Assembly (NCBI GenBank): GCA_944358415.1
Contig: CALVRA010000003.1
Coordinates: forward strand, 17,790 to 81,789
Length of the DNA: 64,000 bases
Source of the DNA: an uncultured Bacilli bacterium
GTDB taxonomy: Bacteria; Bacillota_I; Bacilli_A; RF39; UBA660
Direction: 5' to 3'
Made by a program: the position numbers and the translations under genes
Notes under the pieces: model-generated
Told to the model about the DNA's origin: nothing
The model's input: only the letters and a program-made list of their open reading frames with translations
The model's database searches: none
Part shown: positions 23,983 through 52,523 of the stretch, piece after piece
Layout of the letters: the number at the start of each line of letters is the position of its first letter
Numbering within the stretch: position 1 is the stretch's first letter

Positions 23983-24109
23983 AGAAATTGCACTTTGAAA
24001 TTATTTTAACTTTCCTGAACATATTTATCAAATTAATGGGTAAATGATGGGTAGCGTTCTACCAAGTTTGTCAAAAGCTATATAAACGAAAAATGGAGCC
24101 TTTTGGCTC

Positions 24110-24119
24110 CTTCAGGGGG
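24110..24119. repeat. att core copy 1 (CTTCAGGGGG), left junction of island A
   Basis: Identical 10-mer at 24110, 40317 and 52473. It is preceded by the hairpin GGAGCC-TTTT-GGCTCC (24095-24110). Confidence 0.75.
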
Positions 24120-24220
24120 GCCTGCTCTCTTCAGTTAGAAGAGACCGAATTGTATTAAACCCTTTAAATACGGGCCTTTTTATATTGGCATAAACCCTCA
24201 TTTACCGTGGTTTTTTAGTA

Positions 24221-24246
24221 TTTTTGTACCTAAATTGTACCTAAAA
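24221..24246 (+). repeat. arm-type repeat (2x GTACCTAAA), left end of island A
   Basis: 26/26 identical to 40216-40241. It lies about 100 bp inside the core. Confidence 0.7.
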
Positions 24247-24274
24247 AAAGAATTAGAACCTATTCTACTAACTC

Positions 24275-24667
24275 TTAAAATGAATACTTTTCTCCAAACA
24301 ATTTGCTTTCAACTATACACAATATAGCATACCCTAAAATAAATAGAAATGCTACTAAGTAAAGATTAGTTATAAATTTAGTTATCAATAAAAATAAGCC
24401 TGTTAATATTGCATAATTAATAAAGAATCCAAAACTTCCAATTGACTTTGCTCCACCATTATACCACGTGTGTGTTAAAGCATAAGCAAGAGGAATAAAA
24501 ATACCACCACATATCCAGTTAACAATTGTAGCCATATTAGGGTCTTTAACTATATTAGAAAATGGATTAGGAAAACAGAATTGTCTTATCAAATAGCTTG
24601 CTATGCTTACTAACCCTCTTCCATTGTAACTTTTACTTCTATATCTTCGACTCATTATGTGCATCAC
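24275..24667 (-). CDS. small membrane protein (3 predicted TM), third gene of the OLD-type operon
   Basis: Hydrophobic segments IVNWICGGIFIPLAYAL, FGFFINYAILTGLFLLI and LYLVAFLFILGYAILCIV. The start region overlaps the upstream stop (GTGATG). Confidence 0.6.
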   Translation of the reverse strand: MMHIMSRRYRSKSYNGRGLVSIASYLIRQFCFPNPFSNIVKDPNMATIVNWICGGIFIPLAYALTHTWYNGGAKSIGSFGFFINYAILTGLFLLITKFITNLYLVAFLFILGYAILCIVESKLFGEKYSF

Positions 24668-25908
24668 TCCTTATCAAGAAAATTAATAAATTTATTTATA
24701 TTCTTTTTATATGAAAAATATTGATCTGCAGAAAAAACTTTTGCCTCATTTGGTAACATTCCTTTATCTTCATACTCTTTTTTATTAATGTTAAAATGAT
24801 TTTCTAAATCCACATCAAATAATTTAACCTTTTTACTATATTTTTCTTTCAAATACAATGTTATACCATATGCTGTATTGTATCTTTTTGACTTTCCTTT
24901 ACACTTTTTATCACTATCTGTTATTATAATAATTTCTTTTCCTATCTTAGTAAATAATTCAGCAAAGAAAATCATAAAAGCTTTCCCATAGGTTACAAAG
25001 AAAAAATCATCATGTAATTGTTCAATATTCAGTTTTCTAATAATTCTATTCTCAGAGGCACCCTCAACTAAAATAATTCTTTTATAAAATAAGGCTCTAT
25101 AAAATTGTTCAGATTTCAGTGCATCATTCAAGTATAATTTAAACAATTTGTTATCTTCATAGTAATGCATTTTCATAGTTATTCCCTTATCAATATCTAA
25201 GTTTTTAGTCAGTATATATTTTTCAAAATCTTCAGTGCATGTTCTATACATTTTTTTTATATCTTTTAAAGATTGATATATAAGACTATTTTTATAATTA
25301 GATTCTTCAACATCAAACCATTTATTTATAAAAACTATGTTATCCATTGGTATTTTAAGTAAATTACACAAACTATAACTATGCGTAGCTACAACTAATT
25401 TAATATTTGCTTTTTTTAGCATTGAAAATAATACAGAAATTTTTCTTAGGCCTAAATCATCTAAAAAATTTTCTGGTTCATCAAAAAAAATAATTTTTAT
25501 AGGATTCATAAAAGTATTAAAAACTATGTTAAAAATATTAAAAACTTTTTCTTGCCCCTTTGATTTATTCTTTACTGAATTATAAAAATCAATTTCTTTC
25601 TTACAATAAGACAATAATTCTATTAATCTTTTATCAATTTTAACTACTTTTATTTCTTCTCTTTCTTTAGTTTCACCATAATATTTAGATTTTGGATATA
25701 GTAAATATTCATATGTTTCTAACTTAGGAATAGCATTACTACGAAACATTTTAACATCTAATGTGCCTTCTTCTGAAATATATATACTTTTACCTTCTGT
25801 AATATCTTGATACTCCTTCAAAGTATATGTTTTTCCACTACCATTTGATCCAATAAGAAACAAAGGATCATAACAATTATTATTTAAATATCTATTTATC
25901 ATTGCCAA
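24664..25908 (-). CDS. OLD-family nuclease (compact ABC-type ATPase fused to Toprim domain)
   Basis: Walker A GSNGSGKT, signature-like SKGQEK, Walker B IIFFDEPENFLD, H-loop VATHS. Toprim motifs ILVEGASE and IIITDSD. The likely ATG at 25902 overlaps the upstream stop. Confidence 0.8.
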   Translation of the reverse strand: MAMINRYLNNNCYDPLFLIGSNGSGKTYTLKEYQDITEGKSIYISEEGTLDVKMFRSNAIPKLETYEYLLYPKSKYYGETKEREEIKVVKIDKRLIELLSYCKKEIDFYNSVKNKSKGQEKVFNIFNIVFNTFMNPIKIIFFDEPENFLDDLGLRKISVLFSMLKKANIKLVVATHSYSLCNLLKIPMDNIVFINKWFDVEESNYKNSLIYQSLKDIKKMYRTCTEDFEKYILTKNLDIDKGITMKMHYYEDNKLFKLYLNDALKSEQFYRALFYKRIILVEGASENRIIRKLNIEQLHDDFFFVTYGKAFMIFFAELFTKIGKEIIIITDSDKKCKGKSKRYNTAYGITLYLKEKYSKKVKLFDVDLENHFNINKKEYEDKGMLPNEAKVFSADQYFSYKKNINKFINFLDKE

Positions 25909-27256
25909 TTACCTCCAGTAAGTTATAGCAAAAATAATCAAATAATTGTTTTAATTCCTCTACAGTTGGTTTATATTTATTATTCATTATTTTTTCTAAT
26001 GTAATAAAACCTCTTTCGTATTTATACAATTCATTAAACTCTACAGAAAAAAGTTTTAACAAATTATCTATCTTATCTTTTAATTCTTTTGATGTTCTAG
26101 GAAGATCTAAACTTAAACCAGACTCGAATGCTATATCAAAATAATTTTCAAACACTTTCTTACCAATTTTTTGATATGGATATTCATATTTATCATAGTC
26201 AAGCTTACAATTAAGTTGCCATTCAAACATAGCTTTTGAGATTATGCCCTTACATTTTTTCCTTACATTATACTGTTCCAGTTCTTTTTTTACTTCATAA
26301 GGAAGTTTATTAAATTCACCTTCCCAAAACACTACTCTATTTCCAACAAAATCTACTAACACTGAATCCTTTGTATGCATATCAATCATTGATAATTCAA
26401 TAAATATATATCTTTCCTTCAAGTATTTTAGGCATTTATTGTTGAATACTATTAATCCAGCATCCATATCATCATTCCAATTGCTTTCATCTATCTTCCT
26501 TATATTTCCATTTAATTGATTCGTTATAATATCTAAATTTCTATCCTTTGGAATCACAAAATCTATATCTATAGTACCTAGTAACCAAACAAAATCATCT
26601 CTTCCTTCTTTTGTTATTAGACATCCACTATCAACATATTTATCAAATTCTTTTATATTATTAATTTTATCTCTATATTCAAATTCAATTGATAGTTCAT
26701 ATTGAGGATAATGATTTTCTTCACTATTAACATAATCAGAAATTGATTCCTTTAAAAATAATATTTCATTATCTCCTTTTGAAACTAACACGGGCCATTC
26801 ATTTGTTGAAAATGTTACATTATAATAAACCAAATTAGCTACATTTTTTGTATCTTGTACTTTTTCATATATGTAAGAATTGTTATCATTGTATAAATAT
26901 GGATTCAATGTATATATACTATTTCTATAAAAATTTTTTTGTACAATTACATTGTAAATATAATTTCCAATATCATTTTTTTCACGATCATCAGAGCCAT
27001 CAATAAAGCCATATTGTAAGTTGCCTTTTAACCAAGTTTGATTAATTTCAATACCTTTTGGTCTTAGTATTAACTTGGCATAAAATTCACCATTGTAATC
27101 TTCCTTTTTTGTAGATAAAAATGATCCCTCTTTATATATTCCAGGAATGTAATTGTCAATATCATACGAATGATAAAAGTCTTTTATGCATTTTACAATT
27201 TCTTCAACATTGCTACATTTTCTAAGTTTTTCCAGCATATTTCTTCCTCCAATCAA
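25892..27256 (-). CDS. hypothetical protein, first gene of the OLD-type operon (no recognisable domain)
   Basis: ~448 aa from ATG 27238 (GGAGG 7 nt upstream). It is translationally coupled to the OLD gene. I recognise no motifs. Confidence 0.65.
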   Translation of the reverse strand: MIGGRNMLEKLRKCSNVEEIVKCIKDFYHSYDIDNYIPGIYKEGSFLSTKKEDYNGEFYAKLILRPKGIEINQTWLKGNLQYGFIDGSDDREKNDIGNYIYNVIVQKNFYRNSIYTLNPYLYNDNNSYIYEKVQDTKNVANLVYYNVTFSTNEWPVLVSKGDNEILFLKESISDYVNSEENHYPQYELSIEFEYRDKINNIKEFDKYVDSGCLITKEGRDDFVWLLGTIDIDFVIPKDRNLDIITNQLNGNIRKIDESNWNDDMDAGLIVFNNKCLKYLKERYIFIELSMIDMHTKDSVLVDFVGNRVVFWEGEFNKLPYEVKKELEQYNVRKKCKGIISKAMFEWQLNCKLDYDKYEYPYQKIGKKVFENYFDIAFESGLSLDLPRTSKELKDKIDNLLKLFSVEFNELYKYERGFITLEKIMNNKYKPTVEELKQLFDYFCYNLLEVIGNDK

Positions 27257-27294
27257 AAAAGAGTATATTCCATCTTAAAAATGAAACATACTCT
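27254..27294 (-). terminator. terminator-like hairpin in the leader of the OLD-type operon
   Basis: The minus strand reads AGAGTAT-N21-ATACTCT followed by T6. It lies between a TGTTATAAT extended -10 (27316-27308) and the SD (27250-27246). Confidence 0.45.
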
Positions 27295-27369
27295 ACTATC
27301 TAAATATATTATAACATCTTCAATCTTTATTTTAAACTGTTTTATACAACAATAACACAATTTAATCTA

Positions 27370-29427
27370 TTATATTTGATCAATTAAATTTAATAATTGT
27401 TCAACTTTTTCTACAATTTTATCTTGCTCCTCTTTTGGTGGAACAGGAACAGTCATTGGAGCAAATTCAGATATCCAATAACGTTTATGAGTAGATGCAT
27501 CATAATCAAGAGATTGTAACAAATAATAGTAAAATTTTATATTCATCTCCGGATTGCAATTTAATATTTTCATTGCAGATGATTTAACTTTAAATGGGAA
27601 ATCAACATATTTAGACGAAGTAGTAAAATCATCAAATATTATAACTGGCAATTTATTAAATATCCCAGTTTCTTCTTTAGTATATCCTAATATAAAACTC
27701 TTTCCTGCAGTTAAAACAGGTATTTTATAAGCATCACTATAATTTGTTGACTCAACAATATATTGTGTTGGTTGTTCATACACTAAAATATTTCCAAGGG
27801 TATCCTCAGTCCAATTATCTGGATTTCCATATAATTCACCATTAACAGCCAAATAATATAATTTCTTTTTCATCAATTCTACAGATGAGGCCAAATCTCT
27901 CTTCTTGTCAGACATCTTTTTTATATCATCAATTTCTTCAGTTATAGAGGCAGAGTCATTTTTTAATACCTTTTCAACACATTCAGTAATTCTATTGATT
28001 CTGTTACTTTCCTTTTGAATCATATCAAATATATCATCAATTTCTATATTTTCAATATTATTATCTTCAGTTATCCACTTAATATCTAAATTATAATTTC
28101 TATCTTTAATTTGTTGATAGGAAAATTTTCTCCATCTACCATTTGGATTTTCTTCAGACCAAGTTTCCTTTCTATCATAAATGTTCTCTGAATTATAACA
28201 TTTTATAAAATCATTTAAATCTTCATCTTTAATTGGATTCTTTTTTAATGTAAAATGACTTCCAGCTCTTAAATCATATATCCATACTTCTTTAGTTTGA
28301 ACATCTTTTGAAGCCGGTTTATTATCAAAGAATAGAACATTGGCTTTAACGCCTTGTTTATAAAATATACCTGTTGGTAATCTTAAAATTGTATGAAGAT
28401 TTGTTGTTTCTAATAGTTTTTTTCTTATTATTAATCCGCCAGATCCTTCTTCAAATAAGACATTATCAGGTAATACTACAGCGGCTTTACCATTAGATTT
28501 TAGCAATGTATGAATATGCTGTACAAAGTTAAATTGCTTATTTGAACTTGTAGTCCAAAAATCTTGTCTGTTATATACTAAATCTTCATCTTCTTGTTCA
28601 CCATCTTCATTTGTGATTGTTAATGTTGATTTTTTTCCAAATGGCGGATTAGTTAATATGTAATCAAATCTTTCTCCAGGATCTGATAATAATGCATCAT
28701 TTCTTGTAATAGGAGATTTACCGTCAACATCACTAATATTATGCATAAACAGGTTCATTAAACAAAGACGATATGTACTTTGAACTATTTCCCAACCTCT
28801 GAATGTATTATATTTTAAAAAGTTCTTATCTTTTTCTGTTAAGTCATAATTGTTTTCTATGTATTCTTTAGATAATAACAAGAACCCTCCAGATCCACAG
28901 CATGGATCGACAATGGTTTTATTTGGTTCTGGTCTAACACATTTTACCATTGCATTAATTATTGGTCTTGGAGTAAAGTATTGCCCTGCTCCACTTTTTG
29001 TATCCTCTGCAATTTTTTGTAGCAATCCTTCGTAAATGTCACCTTTAACATCTGATGACAAAGCAGTCCAAGTTTCTCCATCTATCATATTAATAATCTT
29101 AGATAACATGGCAGGAGTTGATATTTTATTGATTGCACCAGAGTATATTTCCCTTAACATACCATCCTGTTCTGATAATGACTCTAAAATCCCATTATAA
29201 TATTTGAATAATTCTGCACCTTTTTTTGATTTTAATTCATCCCAACTACAATTATCTGGTAGCTTAATTCCTTTTTCAAATGGTGGCTTATTATATTCAT
29301 CTATCATTTTTAGAAATAATAAATATGTAAGTTGTTCAAGATAATCTTGATTTGAAACACCATCATTCATTAGGACAGTTGCCATGCTCCATACTTTTTT
29401 ATTAATTGTTGAAGTTCCCTCACTCAT
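27370..29427 (-). CDS. hsdM: Type I R-M methyltransferase HsdM fused to a single-TRD (half) HsdS
   Basis: HsdM_N-like N-terminus, motif I DPCCGSGGFLL, motif IV NPPFGKK. The C-terminal ~190 aa is a coiled-coil spacer, one TRD, and the conserved HsdS helix PVPPKEEQDKIVEKVEQLL. Confidence 0.85.
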   Translation of the reverse strand: MSEGTSTINKKVWSMATVLMNDGVSNQDYLEQLTYLLFLKMIDEYNKPPFEKGIKLPDNCSWDELKSKKGAELFKYYNGILESLSEQDGMLREIYSGAINKISTPAMLSKIINMIDGETWTALSSDVKGDIYEGLLQKIAEDTKSGAGQYFTPRPIINAMVKCVRPEPNKTIVDPCCGSGGFLLLSKEYIENNYDLTEKDKNFLKYNTFRGWEIVQSTYRLCLMNLFMHNISDVDGKSPITRNDALLSDPGERFDYILTNPPFGKKSTLTITNEDGEQEDEDLVYNRQDFWTTSSNKQFNFVQHIHTLLKSNGKAAVVLPDNVLFEEGSGGLIIRKKLLETTNLHTILRLPTGIFYKQGVKANVLFFDNKPASKDVQTKEVWIYDLRAGSHFTLKKNPIKDEDLNDFIKCYNSENIYDRKETWSEENPNGRWRKFSYQQIKDRNYNLDIKWITEDNNIENIEIDDIFDMIQKESNRINRITECVEKVLKNDSASITEEIDDIKKMSDKKRDLASSVELMKKKLYYLAVNGELYGNPDNWTEDTLGNILVYEQPTQYIVESTNYSDAYKIPVLTAGKSFILGYTKEETGIFNKLPVIIFDDFTTSSKYVDFPFKVKSSAMKILNCNPEMNIKFYYYLLQSLDYDASTHKRYWISEFAPMTVPVPPKEEQDKIVEKVEQLLNLIDQI

Positions 29428-29440
29428 TTTTTAAAACCTC

Positions 29441-32224
29441 CTAAGCTAATAAAGCATAATTTAATTCAGCTAATATTTCTCTAAATTTTGCACCAAACAA
29501 TTGGAAAAATTTAGCCAATCCACCCTTGTTATTAAAAGGTGTTAATTCTAAATCGCTTTCTTTTATATTCATTGAAATAGCAATATGATCTTTAATCATT
29601 CTTAACCATTCCATTTGTTCTTCACTGAATTCTCCATATCCTTCGTTTTGTTTAAAGCACCACTCTTTAAATTTAATATTAACAATTGTATTAAATGATT
29701 TTAATTCAGTTGTTTGCTTTAATTCAAATTTAATTAAAGATATGATATCAGCGAGTTTGTCTTCTACTCTTGTAGATACTTTATCACCATAAATAGTTGA
29801 ATAAGCTTCCCATAATTTAGTATTTGATAAAAAATATGGAGCACTCATCATTTTTTCATATAATTCTTCAACCATTTTATAAGTTAACGGTCTATTTTTA
29901 TAACTTTGATTATAAATAATATTTAATGCATCTATTGAATCTTTATTTTCTTCAATAAATTCTGCAAATGTTTTAATTATTTCTTTGGCTTTTTCTTCTT
30001 TATTTGTATCCCAGCCAGAAAACTCAATTGAATCTATATTTTCATTATCAATAATTTGATAATGCTTATCTCTAGCCTCAAGAATAAATTTTCTAACTTC
30101 TGGATTATATATTGGTTTAATAGCTAAATCAATAATCTCTTGTTTTGTTGATTCATATTTACTATTTTCATCTGAAGATTCAATTTTTGAATTAATATAA
30201 TCATCATCAAATGCATTTAAAATATTCTTCGCAACATCTATTATTGCTACACCGTCAGTCATTTTTTTAAACTCTTCTTTATCTTCTGTTTTAAGCACTT
30301 TATCCAAATTAATAAATCTATTTGCTATTGATGTCAATGTATCTTCATCTTTTGCACCAAATGCAACACTATTTAATAAGTTTTTAAGTGATTCACTTGG
30401 CTTTCTTTCTAATTGTCTAGAAGTTGTTTTTTGTGATGATGTAACACCTACAGCATCTACAACTATAAATCCTAATTTTCTTTCTGTTGCTGATGGTGAT
30501 ACTTTTTTTAAATTATCTAGATCTAAAGTTCTTGTAGCTCTACCTAGCATTTGTTCAAAATAATTCTTGCTTCTTACATCTCTCATGAAAATTAAACATT
30601 CAATAGGTTTAACATCTGTTCCTGTAGCAATCATATCTACTGTAACAGCAATTCTTGGATAATAATCATTTCTAAATGCACTTAAAATTGATTTTGGATC
30701 TTCATCAGAGCCATAAGTAATTTTTTTACAAAATTCATTACTTTCACCGAATTCTTCTCTTATAATATCTACGATATCATTAGCGTGACTATCTGTTTTA
30801 GCAAATACTAATGTTTTAGGAACTTCTTTTCTTCCTGGAAACATTTCTGTTAATACCTTTGACTTAAATTCTTTAATAACATTTCTAATTTGTGATGGAT
30901 TAACGATATCATTATCAAGTTGACTTGCTGAATAAACAACATCTTCATCTAATTGAGACCATCTTTTTTCTTTAGATAATCTTTCTCTTGTTTCAACAAC
31001 TTGTTTTAATATACAAGCACCGTGCTTTGTGATATTTGTTTCTATTAAATATGTTCCTTGTCTTCCAACATTAACATCATCTAAAACTGCCTGCTCATGT
31101 GAATACTCTGATACGACATTTTCATTAAAGAAAGCAAATGTCCTTTGATCTGGAGTAGCTGTTAATCCAACTAAAAATGCATCAAAATAGTCTAATACTT
31201 GTTGCCATACATTATATATTGATCTATGACATTCATCGATAATTACAACATCAAAGAAATCTATTGGATATTTTTTGTTATAAGATACTTCTTTTGGCCT
31301 TTCATTTTTAAATGACTTTTCTGATAATGATGATTCTTCATCTCTTTCATCCAATTCAAATCCTCTAAGAATTGAATACATTCTTTGAATTGTACTAATA
31401 CATACATGGGTGTCATTTGGAATATATGATGAATTAAGTCTTTTAACATTGTATAATTCTCCAAATAATCTACTATCATCATTTGGTCTATATTTTCTAA
31501 ATTCTTCTTCAGCTTGTTCACCTAAATTTTTAGTATCAACTAAGAAAAGAATTCTTTTTGCTTTTGCATATTTTAACAATCTATATACGGAAGTTATAGC
31601 AGTAAATGTTTTACCAGCACCTGTTGCCATTTGAATCAAAGCTCTAGGTTTATTTTCAGAGAATGATTTTTCCAAATTAACAATAGCATTAACTTGACAA
31701 TCTCTAAATCCATTTGCATCAAGTTCTGGAAATTGTTTCATTCTATTTCTTAAAGTATCATTATCTTTTAGTAATTGTTCTAATTCTTCTGGTGTATGAA
31801 ACATAAATATTTCTCTTGATCTTGCCTTTTCATCTTTGTAGTCACAAAATCTAATTATAATGTTTGTACATTCATAAGCAAATCTGATTTCAGGTTGCTC
31901 TTTTAATCCTCTTAATCCACTTTTAATATATCTTAAGGATTGTTCTGCCACTACACCTAGCGTTGTTCCTCTTTCTTCTTTTTTTGCCTCAATAACACCA
32001 ACTGGTCTACCTGCTATAAATATTAAATAATCTACAGGTCCACTATAGGTTTGTGCCTCTCTTAAAATAACACCTAAAGATGCTGTAGGATTAAACGAAT
32101 CAATATTTTGAATTACAAAACCTGCTTCTCTTAATTTTTTATCAATATCTATTCTTGCTTTGGCTTCGGGATTTAAATTTAAATCTTCTAATTCCATACT
32201 ACTACCTCTTACTTCCCATTTCAT
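29441..32224 (-). CDS. hsdR: Type I restriction enzyme R subunit (HsdR) with EcoEI-R-like C-terminal domain
   Basis: SF2 motifs MATGAGKTFTA, IIDECHRS, GLTATP, QMLGRATR. N-terminal nuclease-like region. C-terminus FSEEQMEWLRMIKDHI...GGLAKFFQLFG. Confidence 0.9.
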   Translation of the reverse strand: MKWEVRGSSMELEDLNLNPEAKARIDIDKKLREAGFVIQNIDSFNPTASLGVILREAQTYSGPVDYLIFIAGRPVGVIEAKKEERGTTLGVVAEQSLRYIKSGLRGLKEQPEIRFAYECTNIIIRFCDYKDEKARSREIFMFHTPEELEQLLKDNDTLRNRMKQFPELDANGFRDCQVNAIVNLEKSFSENKPRALIQMATGAGKTFTAITSVYRLLKYAKAKRILFLVDTKNLGEQAEEEFRKYRPNDDSRLFGELYNVKRLNSSYIPNDTHVCISTIQRMYSILRGFELDERDEESSLSEKSFKNERPKEVSYNKKYPIDFFDVVIIDECHRSIYNVWQQVLDYFDAFLVGLTATPDQRTFAFFNENVVSEYSHEQAVLDDVNVGRQGTYLIETNITKHGACILKQVVETRERLSKEKRWSQLDEDVVYSASQLDNDIVNPSQIRNVIKEFKSKVLTEMFPGRKEVPKTLVFAKTDSHANDIVDIIREEFGESNEFCKKITYGSDEDPKSILSAFRNDYYPRIAVTVDMIATGTDVKPIECLIFMRDVRSKNYFEQMLGRATRTLDLDNLKKVSPSATERKLGFIVVDAVGVTSSQKTTSRQLERKPSESLKNLLNSVAFGAKDEDTLTSIANRFINLDKVLKTEDKEEFKKMTDGVAIIDVAKNILNAFDDDYINSKIESSDENSKYESTKQEIIDLAIKPIYNPEVRKFILEARDKHYQIIDNENIDSIEFSGWDTNKEEKAKEIIKTFAEFIEENKDSIDALNIIYNQSYKNRPLTYKMVEELYEKMMSAPYFLSNTKLWEAYSTIYGDKVSTRVEDKLADIISLIKFELKQTTELKSFNTIVNIKFKEWCFKQNEGYGEFSEEQMEWLRMIKDHIAISMNIKESDLELTPFNNKGGLAKFFQLFGAKFREILAELNYALLA

Positions 32225-32788: not shown

Positions 32789-33160
32789 TTATATTTTTGG
32801 ATTACCTACCCTCCGGGGGACCTCTAATAATTCATATAATTCTTCTTTTGTTATTATTCCTTTTTCTGCTTGTTCATGATGCATTCTACATAGTGTAATT
32901 AAATTATCACTATCAAGTCTTTTATTATAATCTTTTGCTATTGGTATGATGTGATGTACTTGTAGATTATCATAAGTATATACATTATCTTTTAAACATA
33001 ACTGACATAAATACTTATCTCTTTTCTTTATTTGATTTCTTTTCTTAATCCAAGCATTAGTATTTCTAAACTTACTTTCTATAGTATTCTTCTTATATGA
33101 CCTTTTACACATTTTATCTTCTGGATGTATCCTACCACATACTGAACATGATCTATACAT
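32789..33160 (-). CDS. HNH endonuclease (phage-type)
   Basis: CxxC...C zinc ligands plus HHIIP...N..TLCRMHH, the HNH core. Confidence 0.85.
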   Translation of the reverse strand: MYRSCSVCGRIHPEDKMCKRSYKKNTIESKFRNTNAWIKKRNQIKKRDKYLCQLCLKDNVYTYDNLQVHHIIPIAKDYNKRLDSDNLITLCRMHHEQAEKGIITKEELYELLEVPRRVGNPKI

Positions 33161-33588
33161 TATTCTAAATATTTCTTGTCATTACCTTTTAATTTATTAG
33201 ATGATTTATTAATATACTTTTGCATATCTTCTAATAAAAATCCTGGTATGATTCCTCTTTCTATCCATCTAATTGATTTATCATAGTTTCTTTCTTCTTG
33301 TTCTGGTGATAATGGTACTATTCCTAATTTGAAGTATCCATCTTTTTTCATTTGTTCTAAAATAGATAAATAATAATTATTCTTAACTACTTTAGTTTTA
33401 TCTAAGATATCATGTATAGTTGGCATATAAGTTCTTTCTTTACAAAGTTCTATAATTGCTTTTTTAAATACTTCTGGTTCTATGTCTTGTAACATTTCAT
33501 ACCATATTGAAATATCATCATTACTAATTACTTTTTGATAACAAGATGATAGTATTTTGATTCCTTCTACAAAATCTATTTTATCCAT
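33160..33588 (-). CDS. putative replicative-helicase loader (SPP1 G39P-like)
   Basis: ISIWYEMLQDIEPEVFKKAIIELCKERTYMPTIHDIL resembles the G39P-family N-terminal motif. It lies immediately downstream of the replisome organizer. Confidence 0.45.
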   Translation of the reverse strand: MDKIDFVEGIKILSSCYQKVISNDDISIWYEMLQDIEPEVFKKAIIELCKERTYMPTIHDILDKTKVVKNNYYLSILEQMKKDGYFKLGIVPLSPEQEERNYDKSIRWIERGIIPGFLLEDMQKYINKSSNKLKGNDKKYLE

Positions 33589-34402
33589 TTTGTCTATCTC
33601 TCATTTCCTTAGCTCTTATAATTTCTTCTAAAGATATATCTTGAATAGTTTTAGCTTTAGCTTGTTGATGTAAGTATCTTTCAAATTTAGGGCCAAATAA
33701 AGTTTCTGGTGTAAGATATGGTTTCATTTTAGGATTATTAATCCACTCGCTTGTTTTCTTATCTATAACTATTTTAATATCATTAATTGTATATTTTTTT
33801 AATATATTAGCTATTAATTTCTTATACTCATCTATTAATATAAAATTAGAATTAGTTTTATAGTTTAAATAGTCTATTATGTCTTGATACTCTTTTTTAT
33901 TTATTTCTATTTCTTTTTTATTAGTTATAATTTCTAAATTATGTTTATTAGTTTTATTATCTATATATACCTTACTATTTGGCTTACATTTTTTCTTACA
34001 TTTTGACTTACTTTTGTCAGGATTCTTAATTCTATATTCTCTCATATTCATAGCACCAACTGTTGTTTGATTAGTAAGTACTAATGCATCCTCTATATAA
34101 TATTTATCATCTCTTTTTTCCATCATTCCTGTATCTAAAAAATAATCAATAGCATCATTTATTAGTTTTTCTGAATGATTAGTTTCTACTGCTAATTCTT
34201 TTATAGAATATGGAATTCTTTTAGATCCTACTTTTTTTATTAAATAACCATCTTTATTTATTGTCTTAAATATTAGTTTAAAATATAGAATTATTTTCTC
34301 ATATCCATTAGGTTGATTTTGCAAATATTTTAATACATCATTATCAAAAAAATTTGATTTAAGCATAAAGTAATAATATTTTTCTTTATTATAAGTTCCC
34401 AT
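33581..34402 (-). CDS. phage replisome organizer (Phage_rep_org_N plus conserved phage C-terminal domain)
   Basis: YYYFMLKSNFFDNDVLKYLQNQPNGYEKIILYFKLIF N-terminus. C-terminal YLNYKTNSNF...TLFGPKFERYL. Confidence 0.8.
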   Translation of the reverse strand: MGTYNKEKYYYFMLKSNFFDNDVLKYLQNQPNGYEKIILYFKLIFKTINKDGYLIKKVGSKRIPYSIKELAVETNHSEKLINDAIDYFLDTGMMEKRDDKYYIEDALVLTNQTTVGAMNMREYRIKNPDKSKSKCKKKCKPNSKVYIDNKTNKHNLEIITNKKEIEINKKEYQDIIDYLNYKTNSNFILIDEYKKLIANILKKYTINDIKIVIDKKTSEWINNPKMKPYLTPETLFGPKFERYLHQQAKAKTIQDISLEEIIRAKEMRDRQNG

Positions 34403-34661
34403 GCTTAGAATTATTAATTGATACTAAAAAATCTATATTGATCTTAAAATAATCAATTACTTTCTCCATTGGTACTAAATTATTAGGTAGTTTAAATCCA
34501 CTTGATATAATTTCTTCTGATATTTTATTTTTAATATCTCTTGCTTTATTTCTTCCCACAGCACCTATTTTCATTATATCTTGTACAGTAGCCCACTGAC
34601 TATTTAGTATTTCTAGCATTTCATCTGCCGATAATATTGTTTTACTTTTCATTTTTTTCAA
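34389..34661 (-). CDS. small HTH protein, putative excisionase/regulator (paralog at 50249-50476)
   Basis: ~40% identical by eye to the island B protein (..SQWATVQDIMKIG..LPNNLVPMEKVIDYFKINIDFL vs ..KQWCNLDDLMKLS..LPKGLLPMCEVVAYLKINIDYL). Its position equals xis in satellite layouts. Confidence 0.5.
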   Translation of the reverse strand: MKKMKSKTILSADEMLEILNSQWATVQDIMKIGAVGRNKARDIKNKISEEIISSGFKLPNNLVPMEKVIDYFKINIDFLVSINNSKHGNL

Positions 34662-34680
34662 TCTCCTTTTTATTATTTCA

Positions 34681-34706
34681 TTAAAGTTTACCAGACTCTT
34701 TAATTA
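34681..34706. promoter_or_regulatory. 26-bp element upstream of the xis-like gene (inverted copy at 35880-35905)
   Basis: TTAAAGTTTACCAGACTCTTTAATTA is the reverse complement (25/26) of 35880-35905. Each copy has the same orientation relative to its downstream gene. Confidence 0.55.
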
Positions 34707-34721: not shown

Positions 34722-34765
34722 ACAAAATTATAAAAAAATATATCGGTACTGCATGATATAAAATT

Positions 34766-42875: not shown

Positions 42876-42900
42876 AGAAGTAGCACAGGATACTACTTCT
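42876..42900 (-). terminator. hairpin terminator at the end of hsdR (island B)
   Basis: AGAAGTAG-N9-CTACTTCT 8-bp stem overlapping the hsdR stop. A T-rich tract follows on the minus strand. Confidence 0.5.
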
Positions 42901-45871: not shown

Positions 45872-45872
45872 A

Positions 45873-47117
45873 TTACACCTCTCTTTTACCTGTTACACAT
45901 TCATATATAAGTGACTTTTTATATTCTTCTAACTTTTCTATTATTTGCTTGCGATAATCTATTACCTTATTTATAATATTTACTTTTTTATCCAATAAAG
46001 ATACAATTTGTTCTTCTTCTATTCGTGGTGGCACTGGAAAGTACACATTATATATATGTTTATTATTTAATTGGGGAATAGTGCTAATATCTGCAAGGTT
46101 AGATAATTTTTTACCAGACAAAACATATGCATAAAATTTCAAATTTTCATTGGTTTTCAAAGCCATTACATTTGGATCTAACACACATGGGCTATTAATA
46201 ATCTTAACTTTATTAGTATAGATTGCACCACCTCTTTTGGGAGTTAAAATCATTGGAGGTTTAATCATTTCTGTTTCTTTATTCACTTTTATTCTATCAA
46301 ATTCTTCTTTTATTCTAAATTCACCTATTGTGCTGTTCAAATGTTCTACGCGAACTAAATTTACTTCTTTTTCATAAATATGATTATTATAAGAGCTTAA
46401 TGGTAAATCAAATATATACTTTCCTTTTTTTATTTGCCAATTATATGGAATTTTACCAATCCAATCTACGTTTGAATCTATAAATTTTTCTTTTTTTATT
46501 CCTTTAGTAACATAATCTAAAATAATCGAATGTTTATATTCGTTTAGCAATTCTATTTCTTTGCTGTTATCTTTTATTATTTCATCTATTTTTGAATTTT
46601 TTTTATCAAGATAATCAGCTATTTTTTTTTGCTCTTCTATAGAAGGAAAAATCATTGGTAATGAACTAAACTCTTCATAATTAAGAGTATAACGAATATT
46701 TTTTGAATAGTGCATATATGTTCTATCAAAACCTATGTACTTAAAATAATAACCTGCATAGTTTGGATTCATTGAATTCTTACACTCAATTACCTTATAT
46801 GCTGGAGAAATCATTCCATCATATTTACTTAAACCAGAAAATACAGCAGAACAATCTAAATCAAATAAACACATAATTAAATCATTTTTATTAACTACTT
46901 GATATCCCTCAAAACTTTCTGGTAATTTGCCATTTGGATTATCAATATCTTTTTTCTTTACACCAACAGTTGTTAAAGATAATAATTGATAATTTTCCCA
47001 TTCATCTTTTACTATTTCTTTTTTATAATTAAATGCGTTTTTTATTCTATGTACATTCCAATCGTTCGGTATATTCCCTAAATATCCAATACCACTATCA
47101 ATTAATACTCTACTCAT
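45873..47117 (-). CDS. hsdS: Type I R-M specificity subunit (HsdS, two TRDs)
   Basis: 414 aa with two TRDs, each followed by a conserved helix (PSIEEQKKIADYLD and PVPPRIEEEQIVSLLD). It overlaps hsdM by 8 nt. Confidence 0.9.
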   Translation of the reverse strand: MSRVLIDSGIGYLGNIPNDWNVHRIKNAFNYKKEIVKDEWENYQLLSLTTVGVKKKDIDNPNGKLPESFEGYQVVNKNDLIMCLFDLDCSAVFSGLSKYDGMISPAYKVIECKNSMNPNYAGYYFKYIGFDRTYMHYSKNIRYTLNYEEFSSLPMIFPSIEEQKKIADYLDKKNSKIDEIIKDNSKEIELLNEYKHSIILDYVTKGIKKEKFIDSNVDWIGKIPYNWQIKKGKYIFDLPLSSYNNHIYEKEVNLVRVEHLNSTIGEFRIKEEFDRIKVNKETEMIKPPMILTPKRGGAIYTNKVKIINSPCVLDPNVMALKTNENLKFYAYVLSGKKLSNLADISTIPQLNNKHIYNVYFPVPPRIEEEQIVSLLDKKVNIINKVIDYRKQIIEKLEEYKKSLIYECVTGKREV

Positions 47118-48870
47118 CTTCTTGTAACTCCTTTAAAACTCCATCTAGTTTTTTATCAAGTTCTAATATTTCTTTCATAATTTCTTCAGTTTTACGTGGT
47201 TCTTGATATTTATAAAAATATTTAGTAAATGATATTTCATATCCTATTTTTGTTTTTGATTCATCAATATATGCATATTTTGCAAAAGGAATTACTTCTC
47301 TGTTCATATAATCTTCTATTGTTTCTTGTAAAGGTATATTTTCTGTATCGGTTAATTTTTTATCAGGAATATATTCTCCTTTTTTATTTTTCTTAGGTGT
47401 ACCATCTTCATTTAGTTCGGGTTGTAATACTGTTACTTTTCTATATCCAAAATAATCATTATCGAAAATTTTAGAGTATTCATTTTCAACAAAATCACCA
47501 TAAATTTTAGTTATATTATCAATGTGTTCTTTAGATAATTCATTTCTTTTACTACCCAAATTTTTTCTCATTTTATTATAAAATTCTGAAGCATTAATTA
47601 ATTGAACTTTTCCAGCTCGATGCCCAGGCTTTTTATTTGATAGAATCCAAATATATGTGGCAATTCCTGTGTTATAAAACATATCATTAGGTAATTGAAT
47701 AATACAATCCAATAAGTCATTTTCAATAACATATCTTCTAATTTCAGATTCTCCTGAACCAGCATCTCCTTTAAACAATGCCGAACCATTATGAATAATT
47801 GCAACCTTAGACCCTTCTGGTTTCATCTTAGAAATAGCATTTTGTAAAAACAATAACTGACTATCTGATATTGCTGGAGTGCCAGCAGGAAACCTTCCGT
47901 CGCTACCTTTTTCTGCCTCTTTTAAGACTGCCGCTTTCTCATTTTTCCATTCAATTCCAAACGGAGGATTCATAATTATATAATCGAATGTTTCGCCAGG
48001 AAATAAATCTCCAGATAATGTGTTACCGTGTCTAATGTTATTAGAGTCTTCTCCCTTTATTAACATATCGGCTTTACAAATAGCATAAGTTTGAGCATTT
48101 AATTCTTGACCATAGCATAACATTCTAGATGATGAATTTAACTTTTTAGCATATTCCATTGCAGCTGTAAGCATTCCTCCAGTACCACATGCTCCATCAT
48201 ATACAGTTTTAATTTTAGATGAATCTGCCAACTCTTCTTCATCTTCAAAAATTAAATTTACCATTAACTCAATAACTTCTCTCGGTGTATAATGTTGTCC
48301 AGCATCTTCATTCGAAAGTTCATTAAATCTTCTTATGATTTCTTCAAAAATGTATCCCATTTCAATATTAGAAACATAATCAGGATGCAAATTTGCTTTT
48401 TCAGAATTAAATGTATCAATAACCTGATATAAAATTCCATTAGAAGCCATTTTTTTAATTTGTCTATTCAAATCAAAATTTTTAATAATATCTTTTACTT
48501 CATCTGAATATCCATTTATATAATTGTAGAAATTTTCTTCTATATTATCTGGATCATCTAATAATCTTTTAAAATCATATTTAGATGTATTATAAAACTT
48601 TTGGCCAGCTGTTTCCTTCAAAATAAAATCCCTTTGAGCAAAAGTTTCAGGATATTTTTTTGCCATTTCTAATACTTTATTTTTTGTTTCAGCTAAAACT
48701 GAATCGAATCTTTTTAAAACTGTTAACGGAAGTATAACATCACCATATTCGTGTGGTTTGTAAACTCCTACTAGTTTATCAGCAATACTCCAAATTAGCG
48801 AAGCTTTTTCACTAACAATTTTTGATACTTTTGTTTCCATAAAATCCCTCAATTCACTATATTTCATCAT
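47110..48870 (-). CDS. hsdM: Type I R-M methyltransferase (HsdM)
   Basis: Motif I DGACGTGGML and motif IV NPPFGIEW. N-terminal HsdM_N-like helix bundle. Confidence 0.93.
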   Translation of the reverse strand: MMKYSELRDFMETKVSKIVSEKASLIWSIADKLVGVYKPHEYGDVILPLTVLKRFDSVLAETKNKVLEMAKKYPETFAQRDFILKETAGQKFYNTSKYDFKRLLDDPDNIEENFYNYINGYSDEVKDIIKNFDLNRQIKKMASNGILYQVIDTFNSEKANLHPDYVSNIEMGYIFEEIIRRFNELSNEDAGQHYTPREVIELMVNLIFEDEEELADSSKIKTVYDGACGTGGMLTAAMEYAKKLNSSSRMLCYGQELNAQTYAICKADMLIKGEDSNNIRHGNTLSGDLFPGETFDYIIMNPPFGIEWKNEKAAVLKEAEKGSDGRFPAGTPAISDSQLLFLQNAISKMKPEGSKVAIIHNGSALFKGDAGSGESEIRRYVIENDLLDCIIQLPNDMFYNTGIATYIWILSNKKPGHRAGKVQLINASEFYNKMRKNLGSKRNELSKEHIDNITKIYGDFVENEYSKIFDNDYFGYRKVTVLQPELNEDGTPKKNKKGEYIPDKKLTDTENIPLQETIEDYMNREVIPFAKYAYIDESKTKIGYEISFTKYFYKYQEPRKTEEIMKEILELDKKLDGVLKELQEDE

Positions 48871-49416: not shown

Positions 49417-49686
49417 ATGGATAACTTTATTATGATTCCTACAAGTTTAATTACTTTTAAGATGCCTAGAAGTGCAATGTTACTTCTAGGCATTTTATAT
49501 TCTAATTCTAGACAATTAGGTTATGCTTATGGAACGAATAAGTATTATGCTAAACAATTAGGTTGTTCTACTAGGACTATTACTAACCTATTAAAGTATT
49601 TAGTAAATAACAATTATATTACTATTGTTAATGGAAATAGTTTTAAAAGAAAAATATATATTAGAAATAATGTTCTAATTACTTAG
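49417..49686 (+). CDS. winged-HTH DNA-binding protein (putative replication initiator/regulator fragment)
   Basis: 89 aa. The pattern IPTSL......A.LLLG.LYS......GYAY.TN.YYAKQLGCSTRTITNLLKYL..N.YI is typical of HTH replication/regulator N-domains. AGGAGG SD. Confidence 0.5.
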   Translation: MDNFIMIPTSLITFKMPRSAMLLLGILYSNSRQLGYAYGTNKYYAKQLGCSTRTITNLLKYLVNNNYITIVNGNSFKRKIYIRNNVLIT

Positions 49687-49793
49687 TAAATAGTTTCTAG
49701 GTATATAGAAACAGACTTCTTACATAATATATAAATTAAATATATAAATTAAAAATATAATGATAAGATCTTGCAAGATGAGGTCTTTGGGAG

Positions 49794-50249
49794 GTGTTTA
49801 TGAAAATTAATGATTATATTTTAGTGCATGGTAAAATAATTAACATTAAAAATAATGTTGATGATAAATATATTTGGTTTGATATAGTAAAAGATGAATA
49901 CTTTAAAGATAAGGATGGAAATTTAAAAAATTATCCATCCTTTTTTAGTGCCAGAATCCCCAAAACAATTGCGAATAAATACATCCTTGATACAAATATT
50001 GAAATTGTTGTAAAAGGTATTCCTAAAGGTTATTTAGATAAAAATGGATATAGACAAAACTATATACACGCTACGGAAATTAATGGTGTAGAAATTAACG
50101 AAGATATACTAAATCAAGTGATTAGTTATGATACTGATGGAATTATGTTATGGAATGGAAAAAGATGTGAATCGATTCCTACTACTAAAGAAGAACAATT
50201 AGAACTTCAGAAAATGATAAACGAAATATGTGGAAAGGATTATGAATAA
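49794..50249 (+). CDS. hypothetical protein (possible OB-fold, SSB-like N-terminal half)
   Basis: GGGAGG SD with the likely ATG at 49800. The beta-rich N-terminal pattern (ILVHGKIINI...IVVKGIPKGY...IHATEI) suggests an OB fold. Weak call. Confidence 0.45.
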   Translation: MFMKINDYILVHGKIINIKNNVDDKYIWFDIVKDEYFKDKDGNLKNYPSFFSARIPKTIANKYILDTNIEIVVKGIPKGYLDKNGYRQNYIHATEINGVEINEDILNQVISYDTDGIMLWNGKRCESIPTTKEEQLELQKMINEICGKDYE

Positions 50250-50476
50250 TGAATGCTAAAGAAACATTAGAATTAATTTCTAAACAATGGTGTAATTTGG
50301 ATGATTTAATGAAATTATCCAATCTTGGAATTAATAATGCTTTCAAGTTAAAAAAAGAAATAAAAACACTTTGTGAAGAAAAAGGCTACCTACTTCCAAA
50401 AGGTTTATTACCTATGTGTGAAGTGGTAGCTTATTTAAAAATTAATATTGATTACTTAAAAGATATGAGTAACTAA
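50249..50476 (+). CDS. small HTH protein, putative excisionase/regulator (paralog of 34389-34661)
   Basis: See the paralog. The start overlaps the upstream stop (ATAATG). Confidence 0.5.
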   Translation: MNAKETLELISKQWCNLDDLMKLSNLGINNAFKLKKEIKTLCEEKGYLLPKGLLPMCEVVAYLKINIDYLKDMSN

Positions 50477-50510
50477 CCCATAATATGCTATAATATGGGT
50501 TAATCATTAT

Positions 50511-51113
50511 TTGAAAGGAGACTATATGAAAGAAATTACAAATGCTATTAAACAATTTACAGATATTTATAAAAGTAGTTTATCACCAGATTGGGTTAAC
50601 ATTATTTGTGGTATACTTTTACCATTAGTAATATCAGTTATTGTAATTTTTCAAAATAAAAAAATAAATAAAAACAACGAAAAATTACAAAAGAATATTT
50701 ATAATCATGAAGTTAGAAACAAAAAATATGATATTATATTAAATTCTTATGTAGCATATATAGATGTCGTACAATCATTACCTTTATCTAAAGAAGGCCT
50801 TAATTGCTTATCAAATAATAATCCTATAGCGACTGAAATAATAACTAATATTATAAATGCTAGAGAAAGAATATTGTTGGAAACAAAGAAACTAAAATTA
50901 TTATTGAAAAATGATATCGAATTAATAACTACCATTGAGCAGCTTAATACACTATATCAGGAAATTGCTAATGATATTACTTTTGGTGTTGTTAAAAAAA
51001 CAGAGATAAACACTAAGAATGTATTAGAAAAAATAAGACAATATCAACAATTAGTTGAATCTGAAAATTACGATAAGCTATTCGAAAAATATTTAACTAT
51101 TGATGAAATTTGA
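50511..51113 (+). CDS. hypothetical single-pass membrane protein
   Basis: AAAGGAG SD with the likely ATG at 50526. TM segment NIICGILLPLVISVIVIF. Followed by the AGAGC-ACTAA-GCTCT plus T7 terminator at about 51121-51142. Confidence 0.5.
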   Translation: MKGDYMKEITNAIKQFTDIYKSSLSPDWVNIICGILLPLVISVIVIFQNKKINKNNEKLQKNIYNHEVRNKKYDIILNSYVAYIDVVQSLPLSKEGLNCLSNNNPIATEIITNIINARERILLETKKLKLLLKNDIELITTIEQLNTLYQEIANDITFGVVKKTEINTKNVLEKIRQYQQLVESENYDKLFEKYLTIDEI

Positions 51114-51195
51114 TTTTGAGAGCACTAAGCTCTTTTTTTATTTACTTTAATATGAAAATTCGTAAACTAGTAAGAAGTTTTATTTTGTTATATAA

Positions 51196-52356
51196 TTGGC
51201 TCGCATGATTGATTTATTTGTGTGGCCAGTAAAGGAGGATTATATGGCTGTTAAACAAGTAAGTAAAGAAGAAGCAACTAAAGATGGTCGCAGGTGGATA
51301 TTTTATAATTATTTATATTTAAGTGATGGAACTAGAAAAAAATATAAATCTAAAAAGTTTGCGACAAGAAATGAAGCTGTTAAAGCCGAACAAAATTTTA
51401 TGTCTAAAGTTGAGAAAAAAGAAATTAATGTTACGGACATGACTTTTAAAGATTTATATGAAGAATTTTACGCTTATAAATCAGATAAAGTTAAGTCTAC
51501 AACTATGAGAACATATCGTGAAAGAATTGCTTCTTTAAAGATGCTAGAAAAAGTAAAAGTTAGAGATTTTAATATTACTCATTATTTAAAATGGCGAACT
51601 ATGATTTCCAATAAACCAGTTGCTGTTAAAACTAAAAATCATTATCATAAGTTTTTAAAAGAAATTCTAAATTATGGAACAAAGTGGCATGACTTTAATT
51701 TTACTTCTGTGTATAACAGAATGGAAAAGTTTACTGATCCTAACGCTGTACCAAAAGAAATGGATTATTATACTTATGAAGAATTTAAAAAGTTTATTGC
51801 ATGTGAAGATGATTTAAAGTTTATTTGTGTATTTGAAATATTATATTATTGTGGTCTTCGTAGAGGAGAACTTAGAGGTCTTACTTGGGATAACATTAAT
51901 TTTGAAGATAAGACTTTATCTATTGTTAAAAATGTTGTGAATGAAAATGGCGATGGTGGTTATTGGAAGATTACTACTCCTAAAACTCGTACCTCTACTA
52001 GGACAATACCAATGCCAGATATTTTAGTTAATCATTTAAAAGAATATAAGAAGCAAGTTTCTAAATATTATAACTTTAATCAGAAATGGTTTGTAGTTGG
52101 TGATGTTTCTCCCCTACACCCAGATGTTCTTAGAAAAAGAAAAAATAAAAATGCAATGAGTGCCGGTTTAAAACAAATTAGAATTCATGATTTTAGACAT
52201 TCTTGTGCATCTTTACTCATTAATAATGGTGCTAATATCATGATTGTTGCTAAATACTTAGGACACGCTAAAATTGATGAAACATTAAATACTTATTCTC
52301 ACCTATTTAAAAATAAAATGGATGATATTGTTAATATGATGAATCATTTAAAATAG
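51196..52356 (+). CDS. int: tyrosine recombinase/integrase (island B)
   Basis: AAGGAGG SD with the likely ATG at 51244. HDFRHSCASLLINNGANIMIVAKYLGHAKIDETLNTYSHLF is nearly identical to the island A integrase C-terminus. Confidence 0.9.
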   Translation: MARMIDLFVWPVKEDYMAVKQVSKEEATKDGRRWIFYNYLYLSDGTRKKYKSKKFATRNEAVKAEQNFMSKVEKKEINVTDMTFKDLYEEFYAYKSDKVKSTTMRTYRERIASLKMLEKVKVRDFNITHYLKWRTMISNKPVAVKTKNHYHKFLKEILNYGTKWHDFNFTSVYNRMEKFTDPNAVPKEMDYYTYEEFKKFIACEDDLKFICVFEILYYCGLRRGELRGLTWDNINFEDKTLSIVKNVVNENGDGGYWKITTPKTRTSTRTIPMPDILVNHLKEYKKQVSKYYNFNQKWFVVGDVSPLHPDVLRKRKNKNAMSAGLKQIRIHDFRHSCASLLINNGANIMIVAKYLGHAKIDETLNTYSHLFKNKMDDIVNMMNHLK

Positions 52357-52391
52357 TTATTTACAATAAAAAAAGACTTTTTCAAGTCTCT

Positions 52392-52415
52392 GGGTACCTA
52401 ATTGGGTACCTAAAA
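52392..52415 (+). repeat. arm-type repeats (GGGTACCTAA-TT-GGGTACCTAAAA), right end of island B
   Basis: Two direct copies about 60 bp before core copy 3. The shared motif TCACAAACC (52429-52437) also occurs at 40264-40272. Confidence 0.65.
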
Positions 52416-52449
52416 TATATTTATAAGGTCACAAACCCTTTGATATCAA

Positions 52450-52523
52450 CAAAAAGTGGAGCCTTGCGGCTCCTTCAGGGGGATTGCTACTGGATAATGA
52501 AGTAGCTTGTATATTATATATAC
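52450..52523 (-). ncRNA. candidate small RNA or recG 3'-UTR/terminator unit that contains the island att core
   Basis: The minus strand has TTGACA (52558-52553), a 17-nt spacer and TAAAAT (52535-52530). Then come the hairpin GCTACT..AGTAGC, single-stranded AAUCCCCCUGAA, and the terminator GGAGCC-GCAA-GGCTCC plus T5. Confidence 0.3.
52473..52482. repeat. att core copy 3 (CTTCAGGGGG), right junction of island B
   Basis: Preceded by the island-B-borne hairpin GGAGCC-TTGC-GGCTCC (52458-52473). Followed by chromosomal GCTACT-N9-AGTAGC. Confidence 0.75.

Follow-up and report, generated by a model that had tools for sequence, protein, structure and literature searches.

Two adjacent islands, bounded by three copies of a single 10-bp sequence, lie beside recG on contig CALVRA010000003.1 of an uncultured Bacilli bacterium (GTDB order RF39, UBA660; assembly GCA_944358415.1). 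The window analysed here is a stretch of 64,000 nucleotides of this contig (positions 17,790 to 81,789 of the forward strand), numbered from its first letter. From left to right it carries a gene for a 311-aa protein, island A with the tyrosine integrase IntA, island B with the tyrosine integrase IntB, a candidate small RNA (sRNA) gene, sRNA1, that reads leftwards into the end of island B, then recG and a second candidate sRNA gene, sRNA2 (Table 1). A and B are very probably separate integrative islands that entered serially at the same 10-bp core through their tyrosine integrases, with a small RNA gene as the target.

Attachment core, terminators and arm repeats

The attachment (att) core, CTTCAGGGGG on the + strand, occurs four times in the whole window against 0.03 copies expected by chance, a number that none of 100 shuffles reached, and its 7-mer CAGGGGG is confined in the 64 kb to the core copies. 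The G+C content of the window is 25–30%. An initial annotation had placed copies at 24110, 40317 and 52473, and all three are found at these positions; a fourth copy at 54715, outside the islands, had been overlooked. A different hairpin followed by a T-run on the minus strand had also been described beside each junction copy, and all three hairpins are present and score as terminator-like in a terminator scan of that strand. The outer junctions resemble each other beyond the core: identity extends past the 10 bp, and 24080-24119 agrees with 52443-52482 in 35 of 40 positions.

Arm-type direct repeats are present at all four island ends, as had been described, at a measured distance of 60–110 bp from the cores rather than about 75–110 bp. 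The 26-bp repeat claimed for island A is exact at both ends, and the GGGTRCCTAA-type sites claimed for island B are likewise found on both of its sides. The octamer GTRCCTAR occurs 12 times where 2.9 occurrences are expected, with 9 of the 12 lying within the four island ends. Both integrases are intact, the catalytic motifs GLRxGE, HDFRHS, LGH and TYSH being visible in their alignment. They are paralogues, though not the close ones that had been proposed, since they share only 48% identity over 372 aa. The N-terminus of IntB is homologous to that of IntA, yet has no Pfam match, and the start of the protein is most likely at 51244 (370 aa) rather than at the TTG at 51196.

Another sequence, TGCTCTCTTCAG, stands at 24123-24134 inside the left end of island A and again at 40311-40322, across the right-end hairpin and core. 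The two copies would stand 15 nt apart in the attachment site of the excised island, attP(A), and may be core-type integrase sites. The left copy belongs to a perfect 7-bp palindrome, TCTCTTC-AGTTA-GAAGAGA (hairpin 24126-24144).

Table 1. Positions of the islands, attachment sequences, candidate RNA genes and other genes in the 64-kb window
Feature	Position	Strand	Details
Island A	24120-40326		~16.2 kb
Island B	40327-52482		~12.2 kb
Core copy 1	24110..24119	+	junction of island A and left flank
Core copy 2	40317..40326	+	A/B junction; island B similarity in other genomes stops at 40308-40312
Core copy 3	52473..52482	+	junction of island B and 5' part of sRNA1
Core copy 4	54715-54724	+	apex of predicted sRNA2 3' hairpin
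Resident terminator of sRNA1 in island-free strains (predicted)	24110..24095	-	GGAGCC-AAAA-GGCTCC + ATTTTTCG; now 28 kb from its gene
Island-A-borne terminator (predicted)	40317..40296	-	GAGAGCA-N8-TGCTCTC + ATTTTTTATG; now downstream of island B cargo operon
Island-B-borne replacement terminator (predicted)	52473..52458	-	GGAGCC-GCAA-GGCTCC + ACTTTTTG
Island A arm repeat, distal side	24221..24246	+	exact 26-mer TTTTTGTACCTAAATTGTACCTAAAA
Island A arm repeat, integrase side	40216..40241	+	exact 26-mer TTTTTGTACCTAAATTGTACCTAAAA, contains two GTACCTAA
Island B arm-type repeats, distal side	40436..40484	+	GGGTACCTAG, GGGTGCCTAA, GGGTGCCTAA
Island B arm-type repeats, integrase side	52392..52413	+	GGGTACCTAA, two copies
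GTRCCTAR in island ends	24226, 24237, 40221, 40232, 40437, 40449, 40477, 52394, 52406
ATGGGTA, two copies 11 nt apart (24036, 24047)	24036..24053	+	probable arm sites left from a third ('C-type') island family
sRNA1 (candidate), integration target	~52523 to 52448	-	~75 nt; predicted P1, P2 (GCUACU..AGUAGC) and unpaired AAUCCCCCUGAAG; terminator now from island B
sRNA1 predicted promoter	52558-52530	-	TTGACA, 17 nt, TAAAAT; 11/12 consensus positions; between recG stop codon and core
sRNA2 (candidate), divergent from recG	54640..54745	+	fold z = -5.35
sRNA2 predicted promoter	54605-54632	+	11/12 consensus positions
IntA, tyrosine integrase with arm-binding domain	35991..37100	+	PF00589 8.4e-29; PF14657 Arm-DNA-bind_4 24.9 bits (cut-off 22.3)
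IntB, tyrosine integrase	51244..52356 (open reading frame could begin at 51196)	+	PF00589 2.5e-27; phrog_1 integrase
Island A defence cargo	24275..32224	-	type I HsdR, HsdM-S fusion, 454 aa of no known function, OLD/AriA-like ATPase-TOPRIM, 130 aa
Island A phage-like control/replication module	32789..35837	mixed	S24/CI-like repressor (+); Cro-like helix-turn-helix (HTH) protein, 90-aa protein, replisome organiser, helicase-loader-like, HNH (all -)
Island A cargo slot between int and att	37102..40071	-	AbiEi/AbiEii and two proteins of no known function
Island B cargo without family assignment	40500..42726	-	586 aa and 157/154 aa; no family matches
Island B type I restriction-modification	42893..48870	-	HsdM 586 aa, HsdS 414 aa, HsdR 992 aa
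Island B small-gene module	49417..51113	+	HTH_36/DnaD_N-like 89 aa, 151 aa, 75 aa, 200 aa
Right flank	52585-54567	-	recG
Left flank			311-aa protein with HTH and B3_4 domains, then NfeD, SPFH, YqfD

Empty and occupied sites in other genomes

A locus from another metagenome (L003; ENA ERZ17292900), found through the exact RecG protein, encodes a RecG identical to that of the window. After recG it reads GCTACTTCATTATCCAGTAGCAATCCCCCTGAAGGAGCCAAAAGGCTCCATTTTTCG and then passes straight into the left-flank gene, with a single copy of the core; the empty site that had been predicted is present there letter for letter. Compared by blastn, L003 and the window give two alignments (to 52443 and from 24119) that overlap only on 40 nt starting with the core. 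In a second sample (ERZ24773259; L056, L059 and L066) all three junctions recur at 99.95–100% identity, so the tandem is not a scaffold artefact.

Island B is 98–99% identical in other host backgrounds (L060/L064/L069, L063 and L068). Its similarity in those loci ends at window positions 40308-40312, and past the core lie other chromosomal genes and other resident terminators (GGAGCCATTTTTGGCTCC in L060/L064/L069; also GGAGCCGCAAGGCTCC and GGAGCCATATGGCTCC). The host gene mgsA of L068 is only 77% identical to that of the window. Near-identity of the island in diverged hosts with other resident terminators indicates recent passage of island B between species and its insertion in the absence of A; its exact 154-aa protein is present in 120 blocks of the contig collection. 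Island A has relatives of its own, with ends 92–97% identical to those of the window (L050, L061) and its terminator kept at 92–97% in the same two loci. In L050, which is from another genus and whose RecG is 55% identical, a 190-nt A-type integrase-side end with hairpin and arm repeats (92.7% identical) abuts the genome's own target RNA gene, and the similarity begins exactly at CCCCCTGAAG. In L061/L065/L067, island B stands beside an A-type element that has decayed, its integrase being truncated and its cargo different. All of these similarities, in the empty site, in island B elsewhere and in A-type ends elsewhere, break at the core, as the initial annotation required, and its proposal of serial accretion at one hotspot is supported by the empty site, by island B alone, by an A-type end alone and by the position of the breakpoints.

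A contig from a third sample (L002) ends 45 nt past the core at 52473-52482, inside the end of island B (window position 52428), which may be an assembly break arising from coexisting occupied and empty alleles.

The hairpin at the left junction, which had been called chromosomal, is the resident hairpin, but was itself probably left behind by an older island. Window positions 24030-24119 give a good alignment with elements in L016 and in L081 of IMG/VR at their integrase-proximal ends, where each has a 380-aa integrase, and the ATGGGTA repeats are absent from the island-free relative L005. About 90 nt of the end of an older, third-type island probably survive at the left flank, and in strains without islands, L003 among them, this relic would thereby supply the resident terminator. 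A third full island to the left of 24110 was considered and rejected: no further core copy is found there even with one mismatch, and the genes are syntenic with those of L005.

A candidate small RNA gene as the target

The initial annotation had likened the locus to insertion into the 3' end of an RNA gene, and a conserved candidate sRNA gene indeed proves to be the target. No tRNA or tmRNA gene is available for this role, as ARAGORN found 0 genes, and a known RNA family was rejected as well: Rfam 15 at gathering thresholds gave 0 matches in the window and none at either sRNA locus in six relatives. Lowering the threshold to E <= 10 returned only noise, the best match being ncr1241, whose 19.7 bits fall short of a cut-off of 60, with no match to RsaE.

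The recG loci were taken from one genome per species; the closest relatives are metagenome-assembled genomes (MAGs) of uncultured Bacilli, 'Tenericutes' and Ca. Fimihabitans, with RecG at most 79% identical. The layout of sRNA1, with promoter, hairpins P1 and P2, linker and terminator, recurs in uncultured gut Bacilli at 11 loci, which come from different genera. The P1 and P2 sequences differ completely between genera while their pairing is kept, and the linker of the homologues reads (AACCNAA)CCCCCUGAAG and is followed by the terminator. The predicted fold of sRNA1 has a z-score of -4.05. The 5' hairpins differ too much in length for a usable MAFFT alignment, hence nine homologues were folded separately; each gave the same architecture with the core unpaired and a z-score of -4.5 to -7.9. 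As predicted by these folds, the att core is the unpaired C-rich segment (CCCCCUGAAG) of sRNA1, just before its terminator. With a predicted promoter, an intrinsic terminator and a structure conserved despite stem changes, sRNA1 has the generic features of a stand-alone sRNA gene, and we infer from the sequence that it is transcribed and functional. In the island-free L005, CCCCCUGAAC is followed by another terminator, perhaps the native one.

Could the target simply be the 3' untranslated region (UTR) of recG with its terminator, without a separate gene? The site lies 103 nt past the recG stop codon in the window and closely follows recG in several relatives. Against this stand a TTGAC(A/T)-17-TAnnnT promoter at a fixed upstream distance in 11/11 homologues and the two upstream hairpins that stay paired while their sequence changes. 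The element is also 0.9–1.25 kb from recG in L015 and L052, and in L016 and L050 a gene of 461 aa separates it from recG, which indicates that sRNA1 is a gene of its own. The 3'-UTR explanation is accordingly quite unlikely.

The 3' end of sRNA1 acts as a hotspot at which a whole family of islands inserts. In L004, L013, L016 and L050 the gene is directly followed by an integrase homologue, which in L006 is a pseudogene, while relatives of IntA in IMG/VR (47–52% identical) belong to elements that end with a hairpin and CTTCAGGGGG, followed by the RNA linker, and that carry different arm repeats (GTATCTAA). L006, from another genus, has its own tandem array at sRNA1 (2772-7347) with two cores; a 4.5-kb segment without integrase (AbiEi/AbiEii and a 787-aa helicase-like protein) lies between the cores and is followed by the integrase pseudogene.

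Gene content of the islands and flanks

As judged from family matches, the cargo is mainly anti-phage defence, comprising two type I restriction-modification systems, AbiE and an OLD-like ATPase. Neither Pfam nor PHROGs revealed any capsid, terminase or other packaging-hijack gene among the island ORFs (open reading frames), and the Pfam matches of these ORFs include no relaxase and no type IV secretion system (T4SS) or coupling protein. The 75-aa protein of island B and island A's 90-aa protein are 39% identical.

Cargo differs among genomes in the 3.2-kb interval that separates the A-type integrase from the att end (window 37102-40071; L050 13730-16920; L061 6820-9860): AbiE and two proteins of no known function in the window, DUF7695 and SocA/Panacea in L061, and unrelated DNA in L050. 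By its sequence this interval appears to be a second variable cargo slot. At the left flank, TTGCACTTTGAAAT occurs twice, 22 nt apart (23966-23979 and 23988-24001), on either side of the TTG annotated as the start of the HTH/B3_4 gene, and the pair resembles an operator. In the relative L005 this protein is represented by its B3_4 part alone, with a match to residues 88-310.

Proposed mechanism

The islands have the features of tyrosine-integrase islands at RNA-gene 3' ends, namely the catalytic residues, core repeats with a single copy in the empty site, a predicted terminator restored at each junction, arm sites on both arms and an arm-binding domain (in IntA, with binding predicted). These data have led us to propose a model in which the attP of each island, reconstructed from the integrated ends, would consist of distal arm, core, the island's own terminator hairpin, proximal arm and int. 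Crossover would take place inside the 10 bp common to all junctions; for island B and this host it could fall within 15 bp, because 35 of 40 nt match. Integration would spare the promoter, the two 5' hairpins and the C-rich segment of sRNA1 and swap only its terminator, and the older terminator would be displaced to the far end of the island, behind incoming cargo genes that all read towards it. The 'original' terminator would itself probably have been left by an earlier island.

Diverged arm repeats on a common core would let each integrase act on its own element. Both islands hold the octamer GTACCTAA, so cross-action and composite excision would be possible. The predicted + strand junctions are GAGAGCACGGTTAAATGCTCT-CTTCAGGGGG-GCCTGCTCTCTTCAG for attP(A), GGAGCCTTGCGGCTC-CTTCAGGGGG-CCAAATAAAATC for attP(B) and GGAGCCTTGCGGCTC-CTTCAGGGGG-GCCTGCTCTC for attP(A+B), with ATGCTCT-CTTCAGGGGG-ATTGCTACTGG as the attR of a site holding A only and GGAGCCTTTTGGCTC-CTTCAGGGGG-CCAAATAAAATC as the attL of a site holding B only. 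The islands may still be able to excise, and either of them may have entered first.

Several observations weigh against serial entry of two separate islands into a small RNA gene. No excisionase was recognised by any profile library used, and the 90-aa and 75-aa proteins are without a family match. The exact IntA protein is restricted to the two samples that carry the same tandem, and neither an A-only nor a B-only state was found within the window's own species. No circular or excised junctions were found, attP-type and A-end patterns giving 0 matches in the viral contigs of IMG/VR. A scan of JGI metagenome DNA with a 21-mer spanning sRNA1 and the core gave two matches, of which the one inspected was unrelated GC-rich sequence. 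Finally, the promoter and terminator of sRNA1 are consensus matches only.

Alternative explanations

The islands might instead be phage satellites similar to phage-inducible chromosomal islands (PICIs), induced and packaged by a helper and moving singly or as a composite. The order of genes in island A (int, S24 repressor, divergent Cro-like HTH gene, replisome organiser, helicase loader and HNH) is typical of the control regions of satellites and prophages, Pfam scans of the island ORFs detected no conjugation genes, the near-identity of island B across host species implies efficient transfer, and IMG/VR lists relatives as viral contigs. Set against these points, the Pfam and PHROGs scans revealed no terminase small subunit, capsid-remodelling or other packaging gene, island B is without a recognisable repressor, and no helper phage is known; the satellite explanation is rather unlikely.

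A single arrival of A and B as one composite, with the middle core as an internal relic, would agree with the occurrence of the same A+B tandem in two samples, and composite transfer of tandem elements is documented (PMC5704250). It is nevertheless very unlikely, given that at least three other host backgrounds (L060, L063, L068) hold island B but no A, that A-type ends occur without B (L050), and that A and B each have a separate integrase and separate arm repeats at their two ends. The last alternative, that the repeated 10-mer is a terminator-associated genome motif without any role in recombination, could appeal to the fourth copy, which sits at 54715 in an unrelated hairpin with no island adjoining; it is hardly credible, as every similarity breakpoint falls at the 10-mer and, apart from the four copies, the 10-mer is nowhere else in the 64 kb.

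sRNA2 and the fourth core copy

The fourth core copy lies within sRNA2, on the other side of recG. A secondary attachment site (attB) at 54715 was considered and rejected: among ~20 genomes there is no insertion, and the hairpin is intact in all. The candidate RNA is conserved in ~20 relatives, in which promoter, P1 and P2 are kept and CCCCUUUUUAUUCUUUU is invariant and unpaired. The stems of its 3' hairpin differ among lineages yet stay paired, and the G·U pairs in P1 fit the + strand only. It thus has the generic features of a stand-alone sRNA gene, and it is not in Rfam. In L003 an extra 390 nt with an ORF of 133 aa (989-1377) lies between the pyrimidine-nucleoside phosphorylase gene and sRNA2; this segment is missing from the window (~54857-54870).

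The apex of the sRNA2 3' hairpin, CYUCAGGGGG, is the reverse complement of the sRNA1 segment. Exact complementarity between the two RNAs amounts to 13 nt in the window (54713-54725) and to at least 8 nt in 8/10 genera, and is lost in L004 and L014. It is unlikely to be due to chance and could reflect an RNA–RNA pair. RNAduplex energies of sRNA1 against sRNA2, compared with shuffles, are not significant in most genera (z -3.1 to +0.8), so that the case for pairing is confined to the length and the conservation of the exact complementarity. The apex could also pair with the CCCCU of the same RNA in an internal pseudoknot, which is what RNAalifold proposes, or could be merely a stable apical mini-stem; minimum-energy folds put part of the motif in such a mini-stem (CC..GG), and L014 has a UUCG tetraloop instead.

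A bolder and unlikely proposal is that the att core is the functional seed of a conserved C-rich sRNA which, with its complement at the apex of the better conserved sRNA2 across recG, forms a conserved antisense or sponge pair. If this were true, the seed would be the one 10-mer unable to drift, which would be why the islands target it, with a host range over many genera. Each accretion would leave an orphan 'seed + terminator' 3' of a defence operon (24095-24119 and 40296-40326), and such orphans could raise the number of seed copies in the cell and link the sRNA circuit to island load.

Comparison with known systems and significance

Islands and prophages integrate at the 3' ends of tRNA and tmRNA genes by means of tyrosine integrases of the lambda/P4 type. 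The islands described here resemble them in an integrase beside the RNA-gene junction, an attP copy of the 3' part of the target that restores the gene, a short identical core flanking the element, arm-type sites and an arm-binding N-terminal domain (here in IntA). They differ in that the target is an unannotated candidate sRNA, neither tRNA nor tmRNA and of no Rfam family. Moreover, only a generic terminator hairpin is restored, with a sequence free to vary by island type, while the strictly identical part is the predicted unpaired C-rich segment of the RNA. C-rich ('UCCC-motif') regulatory sRNAs are known in Firmicutes, for example RsaE/RoxS. As in these, sRNA1 would stand alone as a short RNA in which an unpaired C-run separates the hairpins from the terminator, and sRNA2 has its invariant unpaired CCCCUUUUUAUUCUUUU; unlike them, sRNA1 matches neither RsaE nor another Rfam family, even when E <= 10 is allowed.

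Size (12–16 kb), the combination in island A of int, a repressor with a divergent Cro-like gene and a replication module, and site-specific integration with tandem neighbours are shared with Staphylococcus aureus pathogenicity islands (SaPIs) and PICIs, from which the present islands differ by having no packaging or capsid-redirecting genes, no known helper and mostly defence cargo. Tandem accretion of integrative elements at one att site is known from streptococcal arrays formed by integrative and conjugative elements (ICEs), integrative and mobilizable elements (IMEs) and cis-mobilizable elements (CIMEs) (PMC5704250). There too, successive elements share target specificity while their integrases have diverged, and decayed relics occur, of which the window's left flank, the truncated L061 integrase and the L006 integrase pseudogene are the counterparts here. 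In contrast to ICEs and IMEs, no relaxase, T4SS or oriT was detected; the cargo here is anti-phage, and the hosts are uncultured gut Bacilli and Mycoplasmatota-like MAGs.

The mechanism is a textbook one, as integration at RNA-gene 3' ends and tandem accretion with relics are already established (the second in PMC5704250), and the general understanding of integration is unchanged. New are the target, an undescribed candidate sRNA with an unpaired C-rich segment as the core, the wide extent of the island family over genera and a possible pair of sRNAs. In an uncultured gut lineage, comparative genomics here verifies that islands carrying defence genes have accreted serially, and the exact att sites could serve as landing pads or integrase tools for organisms without genetic tools. 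Two conserved, undescribed candidate small RNAs have been found flanking recG. The att core would be invariant because it is the predicted unpaired C-rich segment of the RNA, and at least four arm-site types are found on this one core (GTACCTAA, GGGTRCCTAA, TACCCAT and GTATCTAA), which suggests how islands can share a hotspot and yet excise individually.

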